DNA of 64,000 nucleotides from a bacterium. Its GTDB lineage: Bacteria; Patescibacteriota; Patescibacteriia; Patescibacteriales; GWC2-42-12. The stretch lies in the NCBI GenBank assembly GCA_030650415.1, contig JAUSEG010000017.1, forward strand, positions 16,885 through 80,884, read 5' to 3'. Of the stretch, positions 3,184 through 27,016 are shown piece by piece (position 1 is the first letter of the stretch; each line of letters begins with the position of its first letter). Under the pieces are notes generated by a model, which did not search any database, was not told where the DNA came from, and was given only the letters and a program-made list of their open reading frames with translations. A program made the position numbers and the translations under genes.

Positions 3184-4797
3184 ATGGTGAGACAAAGTCA
3201 AATTTTTGCAAAGATAATAGTATTCTTTCTAATATTACTGCTGGCTCAAATGGCCGGTGGTTTTATTTACGCTTCTGAACCGGCGGCGCAAGATGAAAAT
3301 TCGTTTTTCATTAATATTAATAAGGCCACCGCCGATAAGGGCTATGCCATAAAAGCTTTGGCCGGTCAGTTTAGCCTTTCTTTACCCAAGGGAATTTTAA
3401 AAGACGCTACCGGAGTGGAAATAAAAAAAGTTAATGAAGATATGGATTTGCCTTGGCAGCTGGAAAAATTAAGCGAAATTTATCAGTATGAAATTATTAA
3501 TAAAACGGCTTATGACGGTAAAAAACCGCTAACGGTTGAGATTAAATATAATCAAGCGTCTTATTACTATAAGCAAGTTTATTTTTACGACAAAAATTAT
3601 TCTTCTTGGCGGCCGCTTTCCTGCAAGGAAATTTTTGACAAAAGTTCCGTTAGATGCGAAGTGCCGTTTAATTTCGCCCGATTGGCCGTCTTCGCCAATC
3701 CCAATGTCTTAGCCATCGGCAAAGCCAGCTGGTATAGCTACAAAAAAGGCAACTTTACAGCCTCGCCGGATTTTCCCAAAGGTTCAAAATTGCGTGTCTA
3801 TAATTTGGATAACGGTAAATTTGTAGATGTGGTAGTCAATGACTTCGGGCCGGAAAGAAAATTGCATCCTGATCGGGTGGTTGACTTGGAAAAAACCGCT
3901 TTTAGTAAAATTTCCAATATAAAACAGGGAACCATTAAAGTCAGAGTTGAACTCATTTCTCTTGGAGTTAAGTCCGAAAGATTATTTGGCATAAGCAATC
4001 AGGGAGCAAAAAACCAACCGGTGATAACGGCTAAGTCGGCTATTGTTATGGATGAACAGACCGGAGATATTCTATGGCAGAAGAACGCGACCAGCACTCT
4101 ACCTTTAGCCAGTCTTACAAAACTCGTTGCTATTAGAGCTTTTTTAGATACCAGGCCGAGCTTGAATAAAATAGTCGCTTACAGTATTAGAGATGAAGAA
4201 TATAATTATGAATATGTAAATAAATGGGAGTCGGCCAGGTTAAAATTAGCCGACGGCGATACTCTAACCATCGAAGATTTACTTTACGCGGCCTTAGTGG
4301 GTTCAGCCAATAACGCGGTTGAAACCCTAGTGCGCTCGAGCGGTTTAACCCGCAGTGAATTTATTAAGAATATGAATGATCTAGCGGCCGGTTGGGGCGC
4401 GTCAGCGACTCATTTTATCGAGCCGACCGGCTTGGCGCTGGAGAATGTGAGTTCGGCTTATGATTATGCTATAATAAGTAAGGAGGTTTATACTCATCCG
4501 ATTATTCAGAAGGCCAGCACCATGTATAAATATAAATTTACCACTCTGAACACTAATAAAGCCCATACCATAGTTAATACCGATAAACTTTTAGAAGTCA
4601 GCAGTTTAAACATCACCGGCTCTAAGACCGGCTACTTGGACGAAGCGCAATATTGCTTAATGGCCAGAGCTGCCAATAAGAAAGGCGGGCAAGTTATCGC
4701 CGTTATCATGGGAGCGGATAGCCGAGAGAAAAGCTTTGCCGAAACCGAAGAGCTTTTAAAGTATGGATTAAAAAATTGGACGCTGGTTATTAAATAA
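3184..4797 (+). CDS. Fusion protein: RlpA-like double-psi beta-barrel domain plus D-alanyl-D-alanine carboxypeptidase (peptidase S11, PBP5-like)
   Basis: N-terminal hydrophobic signal. ASWYSYKKGNFTASPDFPKGSKLRVYNLDNGKFVDVVVNDFGP is RlpA/DPBB-like. The C-terminal half has SLTK (SxxK), SANN (SxN) and KTGY (KTG). Confidence 0.8.
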   Translation: MVRQSQIFAKIIVFFLILLLAQMAGGFIYASEPAAQDENSFFININKATADKGYAIKALAGQFSLSLPKGILKDATGVEIKKVNEDMDLPWQLEKLSEIYQYEIINKTAYDGKKPLTVEIKYNQASYYYKQVYFYDKNYSSWRPLSCKEIFDKSSVRCEVPFNFARLAVFANPNVLAIGKASWYSYKKGNFTASPDFPKGSKLRVYNLDNGKFVDVVVNDFGPERKLHPDRVVDLEKTAFSKISNIKQGTIKVRVELISLGVKSERLFGISNQGAKNQPVITAKSAIVMDEQTGDILWQKNATSTLPLASLTKLVAIRAFLDTRPSLNKIVAYSIRDEEYNYEYVNKWESARLKLADGDTLTIEDLLYAALVGSANNAVETLVRSSGLTRSEFIKNMNDLAAGWGASATHFIEPTGLALENVSSAYDYAIISKEVYTHPIIQKASTMYKYKFTTLNTNKAHTIVNTDKLLEVSSLNITGSKTGYLDEAQYCLMARAANKKGGQVIAVIMGADSREKSFAETEELLKYGLKNWTLVIK

Positions 4798-5626: not shown

Positions 5627-6541
5627 ATGTTTTTATTATCAATTTTAAGAGTCATAAAATTCAGCCTGCAAGACTTTGTCCGTAATATTTGGCTGTCGGT
5701 TATAACGATTATAATTATAGTTTTAGCTTTAATTTCCGTAAATCTTTTACTGGTGGTTAAAGTTTTGGGCACGGCAACCGTCAACGCGGTTAAAGAAAAA
5801 GTTGATATCAGCTTGTATTTAAAATCAGAGTCCGAGGAAAGCCGTATCTTAGCTTTAAGGAGTAAAATTAGTTCCCTGGGCTCGGTTCAAGAAGTTATAT
5901 ACATATCCAAGCAGGAAGCAATCGATAGTTTCAGGGAAAAGCATAAAAACAACCCGGAAATTTTAGCGGCGCTTCTGGAATTAGGCAGAAATCCGCTTTC
6001 TCCGAGCCTAGTAATTAAACCTAAGGATATAAATAATTACGAAGAATTAATTGTCAGCTTAAATAAGATTGATGATCAGCTGATTGAGTCAAGGAATTTT
6101 GACGATCACCGAGCCATGCTGGCAAAAGTTAATGATATTACCGAGAAGGCTTCCCGGGTCGGACTGGCGATCAGTTTGCTGTTTATTTTAATAACTATTC
6201 TGGTGGTTTATAATACGGTGCGCGTGGCTATTTATACTCATAAGAGAGAAATTGGCATTATGAAATTAGTCGGCGCTTCAAATTGGTTTATTCGCGCGCC
6301 CTATTTAATTTCCGGAATAATTTACGGCTTTCTGGGGGTAGTGGCGATAATAATTATTCTCTATCCGCTGCTAAGTTTTATTCAGCCATATCTCGAAGTT
6401 TTCTTTTACGGTTTTAAAGTGAATATTTTAGAATATTATAATAGTAATTTTTTTACAATTTTCGGCCTGGAATTTTTAGCCGTAACTTTAGTAAACTTTT
6501 TAGCCAGCTTAGTGGCGGTAGGGAAATATTCTAAAGTGTAA
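5627..6541 (+). CDS. ftsX: Cell division permease-like protein FtsX
   Basis: 304 aa: N-terminal TM helix, extracytoplasmic domain, three C-terminal TM helices. REIGIMKLVGAS motif; follows ftsE. Confidence 0.85.
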   Translation: MFLLSILRVIKFSLQDFVRNIWLSVITIIIIVLALISVNLLLVVKVLGTATVNAVKEKVDISLYLKSESEESRILALRSKISSLGSVQEVIYISKQEAIDSFREKHKNNPEILAALLELGRNPLSPSLVIKPKDINNYEELIVSLNKIDDQLIESRNFDDHRAMLAKVNDITEKASRVGLAISLLFILITILVVYNTVRVAIYTHKREIGIMKLVGASNWFIRAPYLISGIIYGFLGVVAIIIILYPLLSFIQPYLEVFFYGFKVNILEYYNSNFFTIFGLEFLAVTLVNFLASLVAVGKYSKV

Positions 6542-18231: not shown

Positions 18232-18263
18232 AAAAAAGCGTTCGAGGTCGGAGTCTCGAACGC
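18232..18263 (-). terminator. Rho-independent terminator of 18290..18943
   Basis: Minus strand: gcgttcgag-actccgac-ctcgaacgc (9-bp stem) followed by tttttt. Confidence 0.75.
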
Positions 18264-18289
18264 GGTTTGTGAGTAAATTTTTGCCGCGA

Positions 18290-18943
18290 TTACTGCGCGT
18301 CAACGGTATAGAGGGCGGCTACCTTTTTTTCCGCCTTAAGCCAATCCTCCGTTGCTTGACCATCCTTCCTCTCCTGCCATAGGTGCTTTGCTCGTTCCGT
18401 CCTTTCGGTTAGGGAGGGGATGTGGCCACTTTCCTTGATAAACAGATCCCAGGCATCGCACCAATTGTGCTGGCTTCTGTCCTGTTCGTAGCGACTCCAG
18501 ATGTGTTGCGCTGCTTTGGCTACAAGTTCATTGAACTCGGAGCGGTTGACCAACGATTTCTCGGCACGCGAGATACGTTCAAGTGTGATGACTCCGTCTG
18601 CTGTCAGACAGAGCAGGATCTTGGCGCAGTGTTCGTGTGTCTCGCAGGCGCTGATGATGACCTTAACGCCCGGACAGAGGCAGATGTCAGGGATAGGGCC
18701 ATAACAGGCTTCGGGCTTGAACATGGCCACGATACGTTTTCCGGCCGCCAGGCATTGCGCGATGGCATGGATATGATGGTAGCCGTATGAGCTGCGTCCT
18801 CTTTGCCCGCACACGAAACAGGTGGCATCCGGGTTTTGCCCGTGATATTGTTGGAGACCGTACTTGTCGGTGTAGAAGTACTCGCCTTCAGAAGGTTTTA
18901 GATCTGCCAATTCGGCAGTGCCCGTAGAATTAGTTTCTATCAT
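18290..18943 (-). CDS. High-GC orphan: Cys/His-rich N-terminal domain plus DUF2934-like C-terminal repeat(s)
   Basis: 217 aa. CFVCGQ..GYHHIH..C...C..CLC...CETHEHC..C gives about 9 Cys and 6 His in 75 aa. C-terminal RAKHLWQERKDGQATEDWLKAEKKV resembles the DUF2934 motif (E.W...G...G...DW..AE). 57% G+C in line 18601-18660. Confidence 0.7.
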   Translation of the reverse strand: MIETNSTGTAELADLKPSEGEYFYTDKYGLQQYHGQNPDATCFVCGQRGRSSYGYHHIHAIAQCLAAGKRIVAMFKPEACYGPIPDICLCPGVKVIISACETHEHCAKILLCLTADGVITLERISRAEKSLVNRSEFNELVAKAAQHIWSRYEQDRSQHNWCDAWDLFIKESGHIPSLTERTERAKHLWQERKDGQATEDWLKAEKKVAALYTVDAQ

Positions 18944-19002
18944 GTTTCCTTTGTTCGTTGAGTTTTTGGTGTTTGTTTTCCCTCGTTTTTCCCTCCGCCC
19001 TC

Positions 19003-19031
19003 ATACTATCAACTCAACTGACACCTGTCAA
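19003..19031 (-). promoter_or_regulatory. Sigma70-type promoter of 18290..18943
   Basis: Minus strand: TTGACA-17 nt-TAGTAT about 60 nt upstream of the ATG. The leader ends ...actcaacgaacaaaggaaacATG. Confidence 0.5.
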
Positions 19032-20620: not shown

Positions 20621-22270
20621 ATGGCAAACAAAAAAGCAGGCAGGGAGGTCAAGTACATTTTTGTCGTCGGCGGCGTAATGTCGGGTGTTGGCAAGGGCAT
20701 TACTTGCGCCTCGATCGGCCGGATTTTAGTTTCTAAAGGTTATAACGTCAGCGCCATAAAAATCGACCCATATATAAATGTGGATGCCGGCACCATGAAT
20801 CCGGTTGAGCACGGTGAAGTCTTCGTTACCGAAGACGGCGACGAGACCGATCAGGACGTTGGCAATTATGAAAGATTTTTAAACAAGAATATTTATCGAG
20901 AAAATTACATGACTACCGGCCGGATTTATTCCGCCGTTATAGCTAAAGAACGCAACCTCGAGTACGGCGGTAGATGCGTGCAGGTTGTGCCCGATATTCC
21001 TAATGAGGTTATAAAAAGAATTAAAAATGCCGCCGAGAAGAATAAAGTTGAAATAATGCTCATAGAAATCGGCGGCACGGTCGGCGAATATGAAAATCTG
21101 CTATTTTTAGAAGCGGCCAGAATTATGCATCTGGCTGATCCGGAAAATGTTTTATTTATTATGGTGTCATACCTGCCGGTGCCGTCAATCATCGGCGAGA
21201 TGAAGACCAAACCGACCCAGCACGCGGTCAGAGCGCTTAATTCGGCCGGCATTCAGCCGGATTTTATCGTGGCTCGTTCGATCGCCACGGTTGACGCGCC
21301 GCGCCGCCGGAAGCTGGCAATTTTTTGCAATATCCAGGAGAGCGACGTTATTAGCGCGCCGGACATAAAATCAATTTATGAAGTGCCGATTAATTTTGAA
21401 AAAGACAATTTAGGCGAGAGAATTCTAGAAAAATTCGGCCTGCCCGGAAAGAAAAAAGATTTAATTGATTGGCGGAAAATGGTAAAGAAGATTAAAAATG
21501 CCAAAAAGACGGTTAATATAGGCATAGTGGGAAAATATTTTTCGACCGGCGATTTTTGCCTGACCGATTCCTATATCTCCGTGATTGAAGCGATCAAGCA
21601 TGCCGGCGGAGCCAATAATTGCCAGCCGATTCTTCACTGGATAAACGCCGAAGATGTGGAAAAACAAGGGGTTAAAATTTTAAAGAAGCTTGACGGCATA
21701 ATCGTGCCCCAGGGCTGGGGTTCGCGCGGCGCTGAAGGCAAGATTAAAACCATTAAATACGCGCGCGAGAATAAGGTGCCGTATTTCGGTTTGTGCTACG
21801 GCATGCAGATGGCGGTGATTGAGTTCGGCCGCGACGTTTTAGGCTTTAAGGGGGCAAATAGTGAAGAGGTTGACCCGAAAACCGCTTACCCGGTAATTCA
21901 TATTATGCCCGGCCAGAAAGAATTGATTGCTAAAAAACAATATGGCGGAACGATACGTTTAGGCGGCTGGCCATGTAAAATTGTTCCCGGAACGCATTTG
22001 GCATCCGCTTACGCTAAGTTCGGCAAGAAGGGGACTATCTCGGAGCGTCATAGGCATAGGTATGAATTTAATAACTTATATCGCGAGCAATATGAAGAAG
22101 CCGGTTTGCGCGTCGCCGGCACTTCGCCGGACGGAAAAATTGTCGAAGCGATTGAAATTACCAATCATCCATTCTTTATCGGCACGCAATTTCATCCGGA
22201 ATATATTTCCCGTCCGCTTGACCCGCATCCCTTGTTCGTAGAGTTTATTAGGGTGTGCGGGAAGAAATAG
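20621..22270 (+). CDS. pyrG: CTP synthase
   Basis: 549 aa. N-terminal YIFVVGGVMSGVGKG synthetase domain and C-terminal glutamine amidotransferase (GLCYGMQ, HRHRYE). Confidence 0.97.
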   Translation: MANKKAGREVKYIFVVGGVMSGVGKGITCASIGRILVSKGYNVSAIKIDPYINVDAGTMNPVEHGEVFVTEDGDETDQDVGNYERFLNKNIYRENYMTTGRIYSAVIAKERNLEYGGRCVQVVPDIPNEVIKRIKNAAEKNKVEIMLIEIGGTVGEYENLLFLEAARIMHLADPENVLFIMVSYLPVPSIIGEMKTKPTQHAVRALNSAGIQPDFIVARSIATVDAPRRRKLAIFCNIQESDVISAPDIKSIYEVPINFEKDNLGERILEKFGLPGKKKDLIDWRKMVKKIKNAKKTVNIGIVGKYFSTGDFCLTDSYISVIEAIKHAGGANNCQPILHWINAEDVEKQGVKILKKLDGIIVPQGWGSRGAEGKIKTIKYARENKVPYFGLCYGMQMAVIEFGRDVLGFKGANSEEVDPKTAYPVIHIMPGQKELIAKKQYGGTIRLGGWPCKIVPGTHLASAYAKFGKKGTISERHRHRYEFNNLYREQYEEAGLRVAGTSPDGKIVEAIEITNHPFFIGTQFHPEYISRPLDPHPLFVEFIRVCGKK

Positions 22271-22273
22271 CTA

Positions 22274-22300
22274 TCATTGCGGGCTTGACCCGCAATCCAG
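22274..22300. repeat. GC-rich hairpin module
   Basis: tcattgcgggcttgacccgcaatccag. Confidence 0.8.
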
Positions 22301-22331
22301 TTTTTTGCTGATGCTAAAAAAAAACGGATTA

Positions 22332-22361
22332 TTTGACATCCGACTAAGTGGACGAGTATAA
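22332..22361 (+). promoter_or_regulatory. Near-consensus sigma70 promoter
   Basis: TTGACA (22332..22337), 18-nt spacer, TATAAT (22356..22361), 33 nt upstream of the 22395 ATG. Confidence 0.6.
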
Positions 22362-22394
22362 TATAAACATAATAATTTATTTTCAATCATAAAT

Positions 22395-22589
22395 ATGGCA
22401 AATAATATGACAATTGATGAATTGGCCGGAATGATAAAAGGAGAATTTGATAATGTTGGTGGAAAATTTGATAAAGTTAACGGTCGTTTTGATAAAATTG
22501 AAAGTGAAATGGCAAAAGGCTTTAAAGAATTAAAGGATGATCATGAGAAGCTTGAATTAAAAGTATCCAATGCCTGCCCTGTTAGATAA
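22395..22589 (+). CDS. Small coiled-coil protein, interrupted near its 3' end by a 104-nt element
   Basis: 64-aa ORF. The last 4 codons plus stop (CPVR*) lie inside element 22573..22676. See 22677..22747 for the displaced remainder. Confidence 0.6.
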   Translation: MANNMTIDELAGMIKGEFDNVGGKFDKVNGRFDKIESEMAKGFKELKDDHEKLELKVSNACPVR

Positions 22590-22676
22590 GTTTGATTTAT
22601 TGGAAAAATAAATTATTTAAATATATCGCTGTGATTAATTTGTGAAATATAAAGTCAATTTATCTAACGGGGTGAA
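22573..22676 (+). mobile_element. Hairpin-bounded 104-nt element (family E, copy 2, no tRNA)
   Basis: Termini CCTGCCCTGTTAGATAA ... TTATCTAACGGGGTGAA match those of 8646..8798, with two compensatory arm changes. The inner ATATCG/TGTGA flanks are also shared. Confidence 0.6.
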
Positions 22677-22747
22677 CCTATCGCTTTGAGTTGGTTGAAT
22701 TGCAAAAACGAGTGGAACTTTTAGAAAAGAAGGTTTTAAAGAGTTAA
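22677..22747 (+). other. Displaced 3' coding segment of the 22395 gene
   Basis: Deleting exactly 22573..22676 joins ...KVSNA to YRFELVELQKRVELLEKKVLKS* in frame (23 stop-free codons in AT-rich DNA, same heptad-like character). Confidence 0.5.
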
Positions 22748-22782
22748 AGAGCTGGCTTAAAAAAATAATAAAGAGAAATAAT

Positions 22783-23145
22783 ATGCTAGAGGAAAAAGAT
22801 ATTCAATCTATCGGAGAGTTGCTTGATAAAAAGTTAAAGAATCAAAAGGATGAAATTGTAGCTGAAATAGGGTCGGCAACGAGTGAAGCCTTTAGCGCTG
22901 TTGAAAGCAGTTTAGGAAAGCTTGAAACTAAGGTTGATAAATTAAGCGAAGAAATGTCGCTTCGTCCGACTTTAAATCAAATCATGAATTGGGGAGACAA
23001 AAAAATAGTCGCGCTGGAATTGGATATGGACAAGGTAAAGTATCTTCATCAAGAAGAGTTTAATAAACTGCCGCCGCAGGCGGAAATTAGCCGGAGATTG
23101 GTTGAATGCGGTTTAAAAGAAAAAACAGCGCATCCGGTTAAATGA
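22783..23145 (+). CDS. Hypothetical coiled-coil protein
   Basis: 120-aa ORF with no recognisable domain. It ends ...AHPVK* in a sequence (catccggttaaatga) loosely similar to family-E termini. Confidence 0.55.
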   Translation: MLEEKDIQSIGELLDKKLKNQKDEIVAEIGSATSEAFSAVESSLGKLETKVDKLSEEMSLRPTLNQIMNWGDKKIVALELDMDKVKYLHQEEFNKLPPQAEISRRLVECGLKEKTAHPVK

Positions 23146-23158
23146 TTTAATCATCTCT

Positions 23159-23293
23159 AAAAAAGCAAGCCCTTAATTAGGCTTGCTTTTTATATTTTCA
23201 GAAGTTTTATTTCGCTTGCGGTATTACGTTAACGATCTTGGTGGATACCAGCTCGCTATCATATTTCTTGATTTTCTTAGTGGTAAAAATGCG
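23159..23293 (-). pseudogene. Diverged duplicate of the rpmA 3' end plus its terminator (att-like island boundary)
   Basis: About 78% identical to 25686..25820. It encodes ...[26 protein letters not shown] versus the L27 end [26 protein letters not shown]. Terminator aagcaagcc-taattaag-ggcttgctttttt is retained. Confidence 0.8.
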
Positions 23294-23559
23294 GGCTCGG
23301 ACACGACAGAATCTAGATTTTCATATTGGAATGCGAAGGCGGAGGCTTTTTGAAAAAGTAAAATGGTGGTTGATTCAAAAATCAAAAAAAACCGAGCATC
23401 TCCAGTCGAGACACCCGGTCAAATGGTTACCCTAAGGGCATCCTAAAAAACTCGTCCGGTTGAAATTGTTTACACCGATGAACTTTGCTCTACGGATTCA
23501 CAAATTTATTGCAAACCCGATAAAGCAGGGAACCGAAGTTCCCTGAAACCGTCCGACCA

Positions 23560-23988
23560 TCAATTTAATGACGGGTCGACGGGCGTGACGGGAAGGCGAG
23601 GTGTTTGCGCTTTTGGTGCTTGCAGAACTGCCGTCATCAGTTTCGCAACTAGAATTGTTTCGGTGATGATGCAAAGCACAATCCCCAAAAAACAATTCCA
23701 GAACCTCGAGGGTGGACTGCCTCCAAGCATCCACGCATACCCAACAAAGCTCACAAAGAGCCCGACCAGTAGCACCACATAAAGCCGCTGGCGAAATTGC
23801 CTCTTGGCAAGTGCAAGGCTTACGCCCGCACCGATTCCCACAAATAATGTGGTGCGTGCCTCCCAAAGAGCCTTCGGCCAACTTTGGAGTTCGTCGAGCG
23901 CGAAGCTCGCTGTGAAAAACAGACCGCCCAAACCACAGGCGATTGTTCCGACAATTAACAGACCGATTTTGGTGTTTTTAGTATTCAT
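23560..23988 (-). CDS. Island gene A: 4-TM membrane protein
   Basis: The track ORF is 23560..24084. The ATG at 23988 (MNTKNTKIGLLIVGTIACGLGG...) avoids translating repeat R1. Four clear hydrophobic helices. Confidence 0.55.
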   Translation of the reverse strand: MNTKNTKIGLLIVGTIACGLGGLFFTASFALDELQSWPKALWEARTTLFVGIGAGVSLALAKRQFRQRLYVVLLVGLFVSFVGYAWMLGGSPPSRFWNCFLGIVLCIITETILVAKLMTAVLQAPKAQTPRLPVTPVDPSLN

Positions 23989-24049
23989 GCAATTTGCCGC
24001 CGTGCCATCACACCGAAGCAAGTTGCATGAATACTTGTTTAAAAGAACA

Positions 24050-24092
24050 AACTCTATGAATCCACCACACTTTGATGGACTCAATTGAGTGG
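24050..24092 (-). repeat. Island repeat R1 (imperfect palindrome)
   Basis: aactctatgaatccaccacactttgatggactcaattgagtgg, followed by the unique hairpin gggagattt..aaatccccc. Confidence 0.8.
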
Positions 24093-24189
24093 GAGATTTA
24101 TTTTGAAATCCCCCAAGATTTTGTGATGATTCTGTTGCCAGGTAATCACTCTACCCCGCGTGCCGAAGCCGCAGTGGAGCCGCTTTGGG

Positions 24190-24336
24190 CTAGGCCAGCA
24201 TGGACTCAGGCACAACCTTGAAGTTGGCCTCATCCACTGCCGCGCAATCATTCCGAAAGTCGCAGGCTTCGTCAAACAAAGCGAACGGCCCGGAATCCAG
24301 CATCCCATCGCGGGTGATGTAAAACGGAGCTTCCAC
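24190..24336 (-). CDS. Island gene B: 48-aa acidic protein (below the ORF-track cutoff)
   Basis: GTG start 8 nt after AGGAGG (24350..24345). Translation: VEAPFYITRDGMLDSGPFALFDEACDFRNDCAAVDEANFKVVPESMLA*. Confidence 0.45.
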   Translation of the reverse strand: MEAPFYITRDGMLDSGPFALFDEACDFRNDCAAVDEANFKVVPESMLA

Positions 24337-24363
24337 TCTTCTCACCTCCTTTCTTAAAGAACT

Positions 24364-24408
24364 GAACTCTATGAATCCGCAAAACTTTTTGTGGACTCAA
24401 TAAAGTGG
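24364..24408 (-). repeat. Island repeat R2
   Basis: gaactctatgaatccgcaaaactttttgtggactcaataaagtgg, followed by the hairpin ggatcaa-aagc-ttgatcc. Confidence 0.8.
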
Positions 24409-24532
24409 ATCAAAAGCTTGATCCGTTTCTCACAACTTTTTCTGGCATGTGACGCACAGGGATTTTTCATAATTTCCAACGCCTTCTTTTATTTATTCTC
24501 GCCGGAGGATTTCGAGTCAGGAAGTAGCCCAC

Positions 24533-24736
24533 CTACTTAATGAACCGTCGTAACCACTTGGGAATTTCCCAAAAGATTACGCAGGTCACTTCGTAAGGGT
24601 GGTGCTCACCTAATGTCTCGCGTTCACGACGCTCTGAATGGTACTTCGATTCATAAGCATCATTCTCGCTTTGACATCCGATGGACACCTGGCCACCTTT
24701 CCGCTTCGCCACATATGCAGTATGCAGCATCTGCAA
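24533..24736 (-). CDS. Island gene C: ~65-aa basic protein, start uncertain
   Basis: ORF ...MLHTAYVAKRKGGQVSIGCQSENDAYESKYHSERRERETLGEHHPYEVTCVIFWEIPKWLRRFIK*. First ATG at 24730. No clear SD. Confidence 0.35.
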   Translation of the reverse strand: MQMLHTAYVAKRKGGQVSIGCQSENDAYESKYHSERRERETLGEHHPYEVTCVIFWEIPKWLRRFIK

Positions 24737-24775
24737 CCAGCGCCACCACTTCTGGGCTTTACTGGTTTCTTCAAA

Positions 24776-24821
24776 GAACTCTATGAATCCACCACATCTA
24801 TGATGAACTCAATAAAATGGG
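24776..24821 (-). repeat. Island repeat R3
   Basis: gaactctatgaatccaccacatctatgatgaactcaataaaatggg, followed by the hairpin gggaatgt..acattccc. Confidence 0.8.
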
Positions 24822-24862
24822 AATGTTTGTTTGGCACATTCCCGAAAGCCGATTGAAACTGG

Positions 24863-25447
24863 TCAAGAAGATGGTTTTGTTTCAGTGACACTGACCATCT
24901 TTTGAAATCCTTCCTCGGTTACGAGGCCGGAGGCGATAGCCAGAGACGCGGCGGATCGTGCCGCACCTATACCGAAACCTCGCCTTTTCCCATTCATCTT
25001 TCCGAAGATGAATTGCGCCACTCGCTCCTGAAAGTCGATCTCCTCTGTCTGGTATTCAAGGCCGTGTTCAATAAAAAACCCGCTAATTAGACGAACGGCT
25101 TTTTTACCAACACCGCGGTAGTGAAGAAGCTGATAGTCGCTTTTACCACGGATGTCGCCGACTCGCTCAAACCCACACTTCGCCAACGGTCCAACGACCG
25201 AACCGGGGAAGACCTCTTCCAGCCGTAACATGTACAGCCCGACCCTGTCTCCCTTCAGCTTCTTTAATTTATTGGCTCGGGCGATTCGGGTTTCTGCCTC
25301 TTGGCGAATAGAACGTATCCGAGAAGAGGTAACCTTGAACCGATCAGCAATTGCCCTTACTTTCTCTCCGTTCGTCATTGCCGTCACAACGGCTTTTTCC
25401 CGATGGGTCAAGATTTCTAGGTTTTCGGCGCTGATATTAGTATTCAT
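24863..25447 (-). CDS. Island gene D: putative DNA-binding regulator (sigma70 region-4/LuxR-like HTH plus RpoA-CTD-like helix-hairpin-helix)
   Basis: LTHREKAVVTAMTNGEKVRAIADRFKVTSSRIRSIRQEA is an HTH. GPLAKCGFERVGDIRGKSDYQLLHYRGVGKKAVRLISGFF resembles alpha-CTD HhH. The 10-bp inverted repeat attgtgaat..attcacaat lies upstream. Confidence 0.55.
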   Translation of the reverse strand: MNTNISAENLEILTHREKAVVTAMTNGEKVRAIADRFKVTSSRIRSIRQEAETRIARANKLKKLKGDRVGLYMLRLEEVFPGSVVGPLAKCGFERVGDIRGKSDYQLLHYRGVGKKAVRLISGFFIEHGLEYQTEEIDFQERVAQFIFGKMNGKRRGFGIGAARSAASLAIASGLVTEEGFQKMVSVTETKPSS

Positions 25448-25736
25448 TGTTTTCCTTTTGTTTTTGTTGTTTGGTTAATTGTGAATCTAAAACCGGAAAA
25501 ATTCGAGTTCAAATTCACAATCAACCCAAAAGGAAAAAACTTAAGAATTCAAATTTAACTAGAGCATAAAATAATATAGCATATCTCATTCTGTTTGTCA
25601 ATACAAGTGGCAGTAAAATTATATATTTTAACTAAAATTAGCTAATTTATATTAATAGATTACGGATCAGAGGTCGCAATGACAATAAAAAAAGCAAGCC
25701 CAATTAAGAGTTTGCTTTTTTGTATTTTCAAAAGTT

Positions 25737-26021
25737 TTATTTCATTTGCGGTATGACATTGACGATTTTAGTGGCTACCAGTTTGCCATCGTATTTTTTT
25801 ATTTTTTTGGTGGTAAAGGTGACGAACCCGGCCACCATAGAGAATAGGGTATCGTCCTTGCCTTTTTCCACATTCTTGCCCGGCCGGTACTTAGTGCCGC
25901 GCTGGCGGATGATGATTGATCCGATTTTAGCGTAGCCGCCATCTTGGATTTTTACACCCAATCTTTTGCTTTGCGAATCGCGGCCGTAGACGGTTGAGCC
26001 GCCGGCTTTTTTATGCGCCAT
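25737..26021 (-). CDS. rpmA: 50S ribosomal protein L27
   Basis: [51 protein letters not shown] is the canonical L27 sequence. Confidence 0.97.
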
Positions 26022-26108
26022 ATGATAATAAATTAAAAATAAAGGTCAAAAACAGTTGCTATTTTTGACTATTTTAATATAACAAATGCCTATATGAATG
26101 TCAAGGGC

Positions 26109-26136
26109 TTGACATAAATTTACGGCATGTTATTAT
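26109..26136 (+). promoter_or_regulatory. Sigma70-type promoter of the FTR1 permease gene
   Basis: TTGACA (26109..26114), 16-nt spacer, TATTAT (26131..26136). SD taggag lies 9 nt before the ATG at 26171. Confidence 0.5.
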
Positions 26137-26170
26137 ATGAATACCAACTAATTTAGTAGGAGATTAAAAT

Positions 26171-26977
26171 ATGCTGGAAAGTTCTATAATATCATTCAGA
26201 GAAATCTTGGAAGCCTCTTTAGTAATCGGCATTGTTTTGAGTTATTTGGTTAAGATAAAACAAACTAAATACAATAATGTCGTTTATCTGGGCGTGGTCG
26301 CCGGCATAAGCGCGAGCATAGTCGGCGCTTTGATATTTAATCAAGTTGCCGGCGGATTTACCGGCCGAGCCGAGCAAATATTCGAAGGGATTACCATGCT
26401 GGTTGGCGCTTTTCTTTTGACCACCATGATATTATGGATGATGAAGCGGAAGCATGTTGCCAAAGAGCTGGAAGACAAAGTGACTGCGGAAATAAGCGAA
26501 GCGCATAAATTTGGTTTATTTTTATTAGTTTTTGTCGCTGTCTTAAGAGAAGGCATAGAAACAGTTATTTTTTTGGGAGCGGCCAGTTTTACTTCAACCG
26601 GCAATAGTTTGATTGGGGCTTTAGCCGGAATAGTGGCGGCGATTTTATTGGGCTACGCTATATTCGTTGGCTCGATGAAAGTCAATTTAAAAAAGTTTTT
26701 TAATATCACCAGCATATTATTAATTTTTTTTGCCGCCGGATTGGTCGCGCACGGGATTCATGAATTTGAGGAAGCCGGCATAATTCCCATAGTCATAGAG
26801 CAGGTCTGGGACACTAACTCTATCATAGATGAAAATGGGATGGTCGGCGGCGTCTTAAAGGGGCTATTCGGGTATAATGGCAATCCTTCATTAATCGAAG
26901 TGTCAGGTTATTTAATTTATCTGTTCTCTATCTTTACGCTTTGGAGGAACATAGAAAAAGTTCATAAAGTAATTTAA
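26171..26977 (+). CDS. FTR1/EfeU-family high-affinity iron permease
   Basis: Seven TM helices with two REXXE-type motifs (REILEAS, REGIETV). Confidence 0.85.
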   Translation: MLESSIISFREILEASLVIGIVLSYLVKIKQTKYNNVVYLGVVAGISASIVGALIFNQVAGGFTGRAEQIFEGITMLVGAFLLTTMILWMMKRKHVAKELEDKVTAEISEAHKFGLFLLVFVAVLREGIETVIFLGAASFTSTGNSLIGALAGIVAAILLGYAIFVGSMKVNLKKFFNITSILLIFFAAGLVAHGIHEFEEAGIIPIVIEQVWDTNSIIDENGMVGGVLKGLFGYNGNPSLIEVSGYLIYLFSIFTLWRNIEKVHKVI

Positions 26978-27016
26978 CCCCCCTTCCCCCTTTTGAAGGG
27001 GGTCAATAAAGTAAAT

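Follow-up and report, generated by a model that had tools for sequence, protein, structure and literature searches.

The genes of a small island in this patescibacterial genome are each followed by a copy of a 45-nt repeat, hereafter termed the box, which is best read from its sequence as a cis-acting RNA structure and not as a DNA signal. The box is apparently an undescribed RNA hairpin that is widespread among ultra-small (CPR) bacteria. Since hammerhead ribozymes fill the same slot in related operons, the box probably is an intercistronic signal for mRNA processing or stabilisation. On balance we favour this reading over a promoter or a recombination site, without regarding it as assured.

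The box system may help to explain why bacteria position self-cleaving ribozymes between their genes. The same slot between related genes holds either a hammerhead or a differently built hairpin, and about 80 natural variants can be compared. The role of the hairpin should equal that of the hammerhead at these sites, and hence the box provides a direct handle on this function. Moreover, it is a candidate that can be tested cheaply for new RNA catalysis or a new RNase recognition signal. It also flags a set of accessory genes shared by horizontal transfer among CPR bacteria, a group in which gene regulation has hardly been studied.

Architecture of the island

The stretch of DNA analysed here (64 kb, hereafter "the window") harbours one 45-nt repeat family with exactly three copies, R1 to R3 (Table 1). 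The 64 kb contain the 14-mer AACTCTATGAATCC at three sites in all, those of R1, R2 and R3. A covariance model built from box copies found elsewhere scores R1-R3 with 57-61 bits on the minus strand (E about 1e-10 to 1e-13) and with 6-16 bits on the plus strand. Repeat search and model thus establish as real the three repeats with internal dyads that a sequence-only reading had described. A scan of the window with the model detected no box outside the island; the window copies all lie within 2.4 kb, and copies elsewhere also cluster in arrays.

On the minus strand each of R1-R3 directly abuts a distinct GC-rich hairpin, termed P1, as the sequence-only reading had noticed. That reading placed a hairpin and a box before genes A, B and C, which is true but incomplete, as it missed the degenerate copy R0. 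Given R0 and its own hairpin after gene A, the grammar is a hairpin plus box after every gene, D, C, B and A. A further sequence at 18995-19020, formerly proposed to be related to the box, proved unrelated: it lies inside the ordinary TTGACA-17-TAGTAT promoter of an orphan gene (18290-18943), where the model finds no box, and the similarity is a chance overlap.

Table 1. Features of the island and its boundary, in the order of transcription.
Feature	Position	Strand	Evidence and remarks
Sole strong sigma-70-type promoter of the island, TTGACA-17-TATATT, TG-extended	25573-25601	-	Promoter scan, 11/12 matches; upstream of gene D
Gene D, first of the operon; sigma region 4/LuxR-type HTH and RNAP alpha-CTD-like domain	24863-25447	-	
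P1 hairpin of R3 (GGGAAUGU...ACAUUCCC), directly abutting the box	24819-24843	-	Fold and sequence
Box R3, conserved hairpin after gene D	24776-24820	-	Repeat family; 58.7 bits; sense-strand fold a continuous hairpin
GUUCUUU motif after R3, overlapping the box end	24773-24779	-	Sequence
Gene C, 65 aa, recurrent cassette gene	24533-24730	-	Independent gene call; homologues
P1 hairpin of R2 (GGAUCAAGCUUUUGAUCC), scored terminator-like	24407-24424	-	Fold and terminator scan
Box R2, conserved hairpin after gene C	24364-24408	-	Repeat family; fold; model 60.8 bits
GUUCUUU motif after R2	24356-24362	-	Sequence
Gene B, 51 aa, GTG start behind AGGAGGTG	24190-24345	-	Sequence, ORF
P1 hairpin of R1 (GGGGGAUUU...AAAUCUCCC)	24091-24114	-	Sequence and fold
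Box R1, conserved hairpin after gene B	24049-24093	-	Repeat family; fold; model 56.8 bits
GUUCUUU motif, 2 nt downstream of R1	24042-24048	-	Sequence
5' UTR hairpin of gene A, pairing with its start codon (AGUAUUCAUGCAACUUGC / GCAAAUUGCAUGAAUACU)	23980-24035	-	Inverted repeat
Gene A, 142-aa membrane protein, recurrent cassette gene	23560-23988	-	
P1 hairpin of R0 (CAGGGAACUUCGGUUCCCUG)	23526-23545	-	Sequence
Box R0, degenerate fourth copy after gene A (CUUUAUCGGGUUUGCAA..UUUGUGAAUCCGUAGAGC)	23485-23528	-	13.3 bits, E 0.031 (covariance model, filters off, search space the 2.7-kb island)
Strong intrinsic terminator closing the operon (TTTTTTGATT)	23390-23420	-	13-bp stem and T-rich tail
Left copy of the duplicated rpmA 3' end and terminator, marking the island boundary	23159-23330	.	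Repeat search

The four genes lie between a single strong promoter and a single strong terminator, and therefore the island most likely forms a single operon. The assignment of an HTH and an alpha-CTD-like domain to the D protein is supported at the fold level. Homologues of gene C are found in two other loci (L073, L025), and the gene falls into the same cluster as orf73 of L033 and L052. Gene A has homologues in L066, L033, L052 and L009, and its leader hairpin module is also present in L018, L050 and L059. For gene B, the fetched loci contain no homologue except in L078, which is the same genome. Searches of Pfam and PHROGs left genes A, B and C and the recurrent cassette proteins mostly without matches. 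At the island boundary, the right copy of the duplication (25688-25860) belongs to the intact rpmA gene, and the two copies are approximately 80% identical over about 170 nt. Exact-protein look-ups for an empty integration site, using L27 and a 120-aa neighbour, retrieved nothing but another assembly from this sample, which is broken inside the island.

A conserved hairpin on the gene-sense strand

Public data contain about 80 distinct copies of the box, spread over about 70 contigs that derive almost exclusively from Patescibacteria/CPR. Pattern matches comprise 55 metagenome and 17 genome loci (nearly all CPR), and the covariance model yields 108 matches at E<1e-3, arranged in same-strand arrays. 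Besides the window, 26 loci carry arrays of two to four boxes between small genes, and the element is common to Saccharibacteria and Paceibacteria-type genomes. A same-strand ORF ends upstream of the box in 67 of 85 contexts (median 74 nt), and the next ORF starts downstream in 74 of 85 (median 40 nt). Nearly all distinct boxes (78/82) abut an upstream P1 hairpin, and 31 of the 82 (about 38%, compared to a background of 3.6%) are followed within 25 nt by the motif YTCTTT. The cassette-like grammar recognised earlier thus extends well beyond the island: hairpin and box follow unrelated genes in about 70 contigs, and genes A, C and D recur elsewhere in differing orders. The G+C content of the arrays is about 0.49 regardless of that of the host, which suggests a shared gene pool. 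Two pattern scans and one D-protein alignment scan of 2.9 million viral contigs found nothing, and hence carriage of the box by phages is unsupported.

No described RNA family corresponds to the box among those searched. A gathering-score scan of the whole window with Rfam 15 (4227 models, including the twister, twister-sister, pistol, hatchet, HDV-like and RAGATH motifs) returned three tRNAs only. At E<=10, a scan of positions 23000-26100 gave nothing at the boxes; a lone weak eiav_FSE match (24819-24850) is limited to the P1 hairpin of R3, and the hammerhead models do not match the island even at E up to 10. Rfam scans of related loci identified only tRNAs and hammerheads. Among the papers searched, the box sequence turned up only as chance primer matches, and nothing was found on hammerheads in Patescibacteria/CPR.

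The box motif is a hairpin of 18-25 bp in which a bulged U is invariant and G·U pairs are conserved. Its base reads ACUUUAUUGAG / UUCAUAGAGU in all copies, an apparent invariance of the core that is largely due to the exact pattern used to fetch them. Copies free of this bias are five in number (three in the window, as well as L003 and L005, which were retrieved via D homologues), plus 25 found by the model only. An apparently stronger conservation of the 3' arm compared to the 5' arm is an artefact, since the search pattern fixed those positions. In the alignment, 93% of the cells are paired, and none of 500 shuffles reached the observed covariation. Changes on both sides occur at 11 of the 18 pairs and are compensatory along the length of the hairpin, while sliding the partner by 1-3 columns reduces pairing to 26-48%. 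Within the variable apical stem 84 G·U stand against 16 A·C combinations, a fivefold excess, and the conserved G·U wobbles are not swapped for stronger pairs (84/92). Predicted folds of the sense strand reach -25 to -29 kcal/mol (z -3.5 to -4.6), compared to -14 to -21 for the other strand. The compensatory changes, the bulged U, the G·U pairs and the excess of G·U over A·C together indicate that the box folds on the gene-sense strand only.

P1 is a GC-rich hairpin of 6-10 bp followed by the U-rich tract ACUUUAUU, an arrangement like a weak intrinsic terminator, and thus part of the transcripts may end before the box. Among the three P1 hairpins of R1-R3, a terminator scan passes only that of R2. 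The sequences of P1 and of the apical loops vary freely, and the box contains no conserved internal loop, junction or pseudoknot. A three-way junction closed by GUUCUUU pairing to a sequence upstream of P1 is predicted for R2 only and is not a general feature.

A slot shared with hammerhead ribozymes

In related arrays the junction slot occupied by the box can hold a type III hammerhead instead, with one element per junction. Where a distinct hammerhead core is located no more than 3 kb from a box, it shares the strand of that box (26 of 26 cases). Successive elements are box-box (29), hammerhead-box (20), box-hammerhead (13) or hammerhead-hammerhead (7), and they are never less than 260 nt apart. 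The hammerhead units also resemble the box units: a hairpin precedes the element, AGYUCUUU follows it in many units, and the motif YTCTTT is found after most hammerheads of the related arrays. The junction of a C-like and an A-like gene contains a hammerhead in L033 and L052, and boxes in the window. The Rfam hammerhead scores are 51 bits in L001/L002 (above the gathering score) and 49 bits in L007; other matches range from 26 to 46 bits (E 5e-7 to 0.3). Processing of polycistronic RNAs has been proposed for tandem hammerheads on either side of single genes (PMC3088659; PMC6765202).

The occupation of one slot by either element suggests that the box may be a non-hammerhead version of the transcript-cutting device that the hammerhead constitutes. 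The island would be transcribed as one polycistronic RNA, starting at the promoter before gene D and ending at the terminator downstream of R0 (23390-23420). After each gene, the transcript would fold a two-hairpin module composed of a gene-specific P1 and the conserved box stacked directly on it, often followed by a GUUCUUU tract. The box would mark where the RNA is segmented and/or where each segment gains a protective 3' end, and as an outcome the mRNA of each gene would have its own stability and its own translation. The agent most likely would be a protein that recognises the conserved helix base; RNase III or another double-strand-specific RNase is a candidate, as is a dedicated factor. 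The structure and strand of the box, its intergenic position, the array organisation, the exchange with hammerheads and the single promoter and terminator are established. Cleavage at the box and its agent are inferred, and all that is said here of processing derives from the position of the element. With about two turns of double-stranded RNA (18 modelled pairs and further apical pairs), the box is long enough for RNase III, which to our knowledge does not need such strict sequence conservation. A search confined to the 64-kb window and the fetched loci found no RNase III (rnc) signature, a result that carries no weight for the genome as a whole. On the most far-reaching reading of the box, which appears unlikely, Patescibacteria would use box and hammerhead interchangeably to cut the transcripts of modular accessory genes into single-gene mRNAs.

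The most serious rival, to which we assign a fairly low but appreciable probability, holds that the module stays uncut: P1 would act as a leaky terminator and the box as a REP-like 3' stabiliser or insulator, which sets a polarity gradient and shields the upstream mRNA from 3' exonucleases. Such a function would agree with the constant position of the box 3' of a gene, the two stable stacked hairpins, the U-rich ACUUUAUU after P1 with one of three P1 hairpins scored as a terminator, and the presence of the degenerate R0 between the last gene and the real terminator close by. However, a stabiliser needs structure and not 26 conserved nucleotides, and this rival leaves unexplained both the one-for-one alternation with a cleaving ribozyme and the GUUCUUU tract common to many box and hammerhead units.

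P1 and box might also constitute a self-cleaving ribozyme of a new class, which would take over the task of the hammerhead without help from a protein; we consider this unlikely. As the sole element of its junction, the box takes the place of the hammerhead, and genomic associations of this sort, with ribozymes near particular gene classes, served to find twister-sister, pistol and hatchet (PMC5737381). The invariant bulged U and the conserved wobbles that resist replacement would suit a catalytic RNA, and the lack of a match to any Rfam family implies that such a ribozyme would be of a new class. Yet, nearly all conserved nucleotides reside in a regular helix backed by compensatory changes, and the freely variable P1 and apical loops, as well as the lack of a conserved internal loop, junction or pseudoknot, argue against catalysis. 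Other motifs that neighbour ribozymes are not known to cleave themselves.

At the DNA level, the boxes might serve to move gene cassettes as single-stranded recombination sites of an attC-like or IS200/REP-like type; we regard this as very improbable. The sequence-only reading had considered attC-like sites. Mosaic arrays with genes A, C and D in differing orders and contexts, the uniform G+C content in dissimilar hosts, and one extra gene-plus-box module in L005 compared to L003/L004, with TTCTTT at both edges, would be accounted for by such sites. As in an attC array, the island contains four genes of the same orientation behind one promoter, each followed by a box. Moreover, folded DNA also tolerates G·T better than A·C, and therefore the strand bias by itself does not discriminate RNA from DNA. 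However, homologous recombination between conserved junction elements would give equal mosaicism, the same junctions are filled by hammerheads, which are RNA-only elements, and the folding strand is the sense strand and not the bottom strand, according to folds, model scores and the ratio of G·U/G·T to A·C (84 vs 16). The hairpin base is free of GTTRRRY/RYYYAAC cores, and the HxLRH / LLGH..Y signature of tyrosine recombinases is absent from open frames of at least 120 codons in 79 loci and in window positions 22001-27000. No recombinase is found among the best 25 of 71 Pfam families from 114 neighbouring proteins. The GTTCTTT tract lies outside the box hairpin at a variable distance, accompanies about 38% of the copies and breaks the RRR rule.

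Finally, it is scarcely credible that each box is a promoter/operator for protein D (another early proposal) or for a dedicated sigma-like factor, with each gene a transcription unit of its own: while TTGAGT and TAGAGT look like -35 and -10 hexamers, a terminator-like hairpin precedes each box and D combines a sigma region 4-type HTH with an alpha-CTD-like domain, the distance between the hexamers differs between copies (20-39 nt; sigma-70-type promoters need 16-19 bp), the bases in between covary to keep the hairpin with G·U on the sense strand only, most arrays are without a D homologue, the promoter scan finds no site at any box and its sole strong hit upstream of D, and the junctions that bear hammerheads must be transcribed through.

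Relation to known intercistronic elements

Like the attC sites of integrons, the box is an imperfect palindrome after each gene of a same-orientation array with mosaic gene content, and it shares with them a conserved hairpin base, a variable apex and an extrahelical base. Unlike attC, it is devoid of R''/R' core sites and folds on the sense instead of the bottom strand; its arrays are without integrase, attI or Pc, and it alternates with an RNA-only element.

REP/BIME elements resemble the box as imperfect palindromes of 35-45 nt at gene 3' ends with possible mRNA-stabilising and terminator-like roles. REPs often come with a RAYT transposase; they are scattered genome-wide and are species-specific, whereas the box lies in particular arrays (within the 64-kb window, in the island only), always in one orientation, and is found in both Saccharibacteria and Paceibacteria-type genomes. 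The intercistronic RNase III hairpins of phage T7 are likewise irregular hairpins of ~20 bp between the cistrons of a polycistronic RNA, and copies within one element resemble each other. The T7 hairpin remains with the upstream mRNA and protects its 3' end. In contrast to these hairpins, the sequence of the box is conserved across distant lineages, far beyond the needs of RNase III; the box has a single bulged U instead of an internal loop, and its cleavage is presumed.

RAGATH motifs, i.e., RNAs associated with genes associated with twister and hammerhead ribozymes, are, like the box, conserved covarying RNA structures which share the hammerhead neighbourhood. The search strategy of this type is described in PMC5737381. 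Unlike these motifs, the box replaces the ribozyme one-for-one at gene junctions and is not merely found nearby, and it matches nothing in Rfam 15.

The tandem hammerheads of prophage-like operons (Perreault et al. 2011, PMC3088659) separate small genes of one orientation by a conserved RNA element, as the box does, and they were proposed to cut a long transcript into single-gene mRNAs. Unlike hammerheads, the box is a single hairpin without the CUGANGA/GAAA core and without a three-way junction, and its hosts are Patescibacteria.

Boxes and genes of the island

Repeat search of the window finds one 45-nt family, whose three copies are the boxes R1, R2 and R3; the 14-mer AACTCTATGAATCC occurs exactly three times in the 64 kb, each time at one of them. 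The sense strand of the island genes is the minus strand, and on it a GC-rich hairpin (P1), different for each box, lies immediately 5' of R1, R2 and R3. In RNA folding every box forms a long hairpin of -25 to -29 kcal/mol (z -3.5 to -4.6) on the minus strand and of -14 to -21 kcal/mol on the plus strand; the minus-strand fold is much better because several pairs are G·U. Repeat search, word count and folds thus bear out the sequence-only reading of three repeats with individual GC hairpins. A degenerate fourth box, R0, with its own upstream hairpin, lies 3' of gene A (covariance model: 13.3 bits, E 0.03 in the island), and therefore the hairpin plus box pattern is common to all four genes.

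Features in the window and their counterparts in related loci
Feature	Position	Strand	Remark
R1	24049-24093		repeat search
R2	24364-24408		repeat search
R3	24776-24820		repeat search
R0	23485-23528		degenerate box
P1 of R1	24091-24114	minus	sequence and fold
P1 of R2	24407-24424	minus	sequence and fold
P1 of R3	24819-24843	minus	sequence and fold
Gene D	24863-25447	minus	then hairpin and box
Gene C	24533-24730	minus	then hairpin and box
Gene B	24190-24345	minus	then hairpin and box
Gene A	23560-23988	minus	then hairpin and box (R0)
Promoter TTGACA-17-TATATT	25601-25573	minus	upstream of D
Terminator	23420-23390	minus	after R0
rpmA pseudo-copy	23159-23330		last ~130 nt of rpmA and terminator; ~80% identity to intact copy
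Intact rpmA 3' end, bidirectional terminator	25688-25860		other arm of direct duplication
Second leader-hairpin family	25461-25538	minus	D 5' UTR; also L033 ~3270-3340, L009 ~285-345
Orphan gene	18290-18943	minus	217 aa; promoter TTGACA-17-TAGTAT ~19000-19030, terminator ~18235-18270

The island (~23331-25687; 0.45-0.53 G+C vs roughly 0.40 in the host) sits between intact rpmA and an rpmA pseudo-copy, each with a terminator. This duplication looks like an integration scar at a gene 3' end, the signature of an integrated element; no integrase is found in the 2.4-kb island. In an independent assembly of the same sample (Logan, SRR13727527; L078 and L079) both flanks are joined to island DNA, with a break within the island, between B and A, that the repeated boxes probably caused. 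A promoter/terminator scan of the island yields one strong promoter, one strong terminator and no promoter at any box, and one four-gene operon would be the simplest reading. 3' of R0 (23430-23480, minus) stands GGUGUAAACAAUUUCAACCGGACGAGUUUUUU, a sequence that precedes and starts P1 of many boxes elsewhere (e.g., L005, L020); the match stops in mid-hairpin and looks like the cut-off remnant of another cassette. The arrangement suggests that the island may be a decayed piece of a longer array. The second high-G+C orphan gene of the window has its own ordinary promoter and lacks a box; it bears no relation to the island.

The description of protein D as HTH plus alpha-CTD-like is supported by its predicted structure (pLDDT 78), in which an N-terminal sigma region 4/LuxR-type HTH precedes a domain that superposes on the RNA polymerase alpha-CTD (TM 0.8, target-normalised; rmsd 1.5 Å over 63 residues; Foldseek E-values weak), an unusual fusion. 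Only five relatives are found among 5.8 billion proteins, all heading or adjoining ribozyme/box arrays. D probably binds DNA to regulate the operon it belongs to, rather than reading the box.

Spread, position and structure of the box

Contigs of two D relatives (L003, L005) carry the same box behind unrelated genes, with apical stems that differ yet stay complementary. The pattern ATTGAGTYC N8-30 GGATTCATAGAGT, derived from these two and the three window copies, matches 55 contigs from metagenomes and 17 from genomes, almost all of them assigned by their labels to Candidatus Taylorbacteria, Paceibacterota, Nomurabacteria or Saccharibacteria. Six matching loci were rejected as chance matches without pairing (L031, L044/L072, L061/L076, L070). 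A covariance model trained on 53 distinct copies gives 108 matches at E<1e-3, including 25 distinct diverged copies overlooked by the exact pattern. Besides the window, 26 loci carry same-strand arrays of 2-4 boxes each; no box was found in the viral contig collection.

The box is intergenic: a same-strand ORF ends upstream in 67 of 85 distinct contexts (median 74 nt), and the next ORF starts downstream in 74 of 85 (median 40 nt). The upstream hairpin abuts 78 of 82 copies, and in 31 of 82 the next 25 nt hold a YTCTTT tract, vs 3.6% background. In two of its sense frames the consensus reads UGA and UAG, and copies differ in length by steps that are not multiples of three; the possibility of hidden coding, raised with the original observation, is thereby answered in the negative.

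Pairs fill 93.7% of cells in the pattern-based alignment, whose covariation is reached by none of 500 shuffles. With the diverged copies included (model-based alignment), 11 of 18 pairs have changes on both sides, and pairing falls to 26-48% when the 3' partner is slid by 1-3 columns. Compensatory changes extend to the basal helix in diverged copies (e.g., GGAUUC/GAAUCC, GAGCCG/CGGUUC). The freely varying apical stem contains 84 G·U vs 16 A·C pairs, and the structure therefore belongs to the sense strand only. A bulged U is present in 81 of 81 distinct copies and a G·U pair is retained, not swapped for a stronger pair, in 84 of 92 rows. In copies fetched with the exact pattern, core invariance is by construction; the unbiased evidence comes from five pattern-free copies (three in the window; L003 and L005 via D homologues) and the 25 model-only copies.

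Hammerhead ribozymes and the role of the box

The same arrays also hold type III hammerhead ribozymes, with canonical cores and GUC cleavage triplets, which lie on the box strand and alternate with boxes. Rfam backs them, with scores above the gathering score in L001/L002 (51 bits) and L007 (49 bits) and of 26-46 bits for the others. Wherever a box is found within 3 kb of a hammerhead core (26 distinct cores), the two share a strand. Successive same-strand elements (box-box 29, hammerhead-box 20, box-hammerhead 13, hammerhead-hammerhead 7) are never spaced by less than 260 nt; each gene junction therefore holds exactly one element of either kind. Hammerhead units resemble box units, with a variable hairpin and the element, followed in many cases by (A)AGYUCUUU. 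Genes A and C are found again in arrays elsewhere: L033 and L052 have the order C-like gene, hammerhead, A-like gene, and the window has C, box, B, box, A. Hammerheads are active only as RNA, inside a transcript running through them. Since the box replaces them, it would most simply be an RNA element with the hammerhead's role.

An element of ~100 nt conserved 3' of A-like genes (...GGCGUCAUCACCAACGAGACUGGUGCGUAAUUU...CCUGACGAGCCGAAACUGUU; L066 ~6410-6540, L033 ~3770-3890, L009 ~770-890) contains hammerhead-like words, lacks stem II and has no Rfam match; it may represent a ribozyme of a variant or split form.

Tandem hammerheads around single genes have been proposed to split long transcripts into single-gene mRNAs of differing stability (PMC3088659; PMC6765202). 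By analogy, the P1 plus box module would mark a segmentation point of polycistronic RNA and/or give the upstream segment a protective 3' structure. The agent may be a protein that reads the conserved helix base, including the bulged U and the G·U pairs, and an RNase III-type enzyme would be compatible with about two turns of duplex. The module could instead stay uncut, as a stabiliser and leaky terminator, and P1 plus ACUUUAUU is terminator-like in one of the three copies in a terminator scan; we consider this unlikely. Still less probable is a new self-cleaving ribozyme, as nearly all conserved bases lie within a regular covarying helix, with neither conserved loop nor pseudoknot.

We give very little credence to the box as a DNA recombination site: no tyrosine-recombinase signature occurs across 79 loci, and no recombinase is among the best 25 of 71 Pfam families of 114 neighbouring proteins. 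Of the cassette-like grammar first proposed, exchange stands, with mosaic arrays and a TTCTTT-bounded extra module in L005, and a strict attC mechanism falls, since core sites are missing and the folding strand is wrong; homologous recombination from one conserved junction element to another would be enough to produce the exchange. The reading of the boxes as promoter/operator recognised by protein D is abandoned, given hexamer spacing that varies from 20 to 39 nt, strand-specific covariation, arrays that mostly lack D and hammerhead junctions that need transcription through them.

A possible shared gene pool, and known systems

Many D-less arrays open with another small protein beside a divergent TrmB-like gene. 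A TrmB-family HTH gene occurs in 21 loci (L001, L007, L033, L048, L052, L064 and 15 others), in several of them directly upstream of the first array gene and divergent (L033, L052, L048, L007). In several loci tRNA, HU or RNase Y genes are close to the arrays as well; the context may reflect a favoured chromosomal hotspot or a protein that regulates the arrays. Array zones (L006-L077) have ~0.43-0.55 G+C whatever the host G+C, and 21 of 25 exceed the remainder of their locus. An AbiEii toxin family scores among the neighbouring proteins, and further neighbours resemble, by eye, RelE-like, PIN, HEPN/nucleotidyltransferase and GNAT genes. These features suggest an accessory or defence gene pool that is shared horizontally.

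Long 5' UTR hairpins are a feature of cassette genes, with the start codon within the 3' arm, e.g., GUAUUCAUGCAACUUGC / GCAAAUUGCAUGAAUAC (window 23980-24035; likewise L018, L050, L059 and many of the leaders that follow boxes). Predicted folds pair the whole start codon in 30 of 57 leaders, and 15 of 61 genes following boxes start with M-N-T (AUGAAUAC). Different genes have leader and first codons in common. A second long leader-hairpin family (GGUUAAUUGUGGAU...AUCCACAAUUAAC) lies 5' of D in the window and 5' of A-like genes elsewhere.

No Rfam 15 family matches the box, and the literature searched contained no paper with its sequence or with hammerheads in Patescibacteria. The window is putatively placed in the CPR through the labelled genomes that carry the box; the NCBI label of its D protein is just 'bacterium'. 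Ribozyme-punctuated operons are themselves a known phenomenon, but the use of this hairpin as an alternative mark of punctuation, like its occurrence across CPR bacteria, appears to be undescribed.
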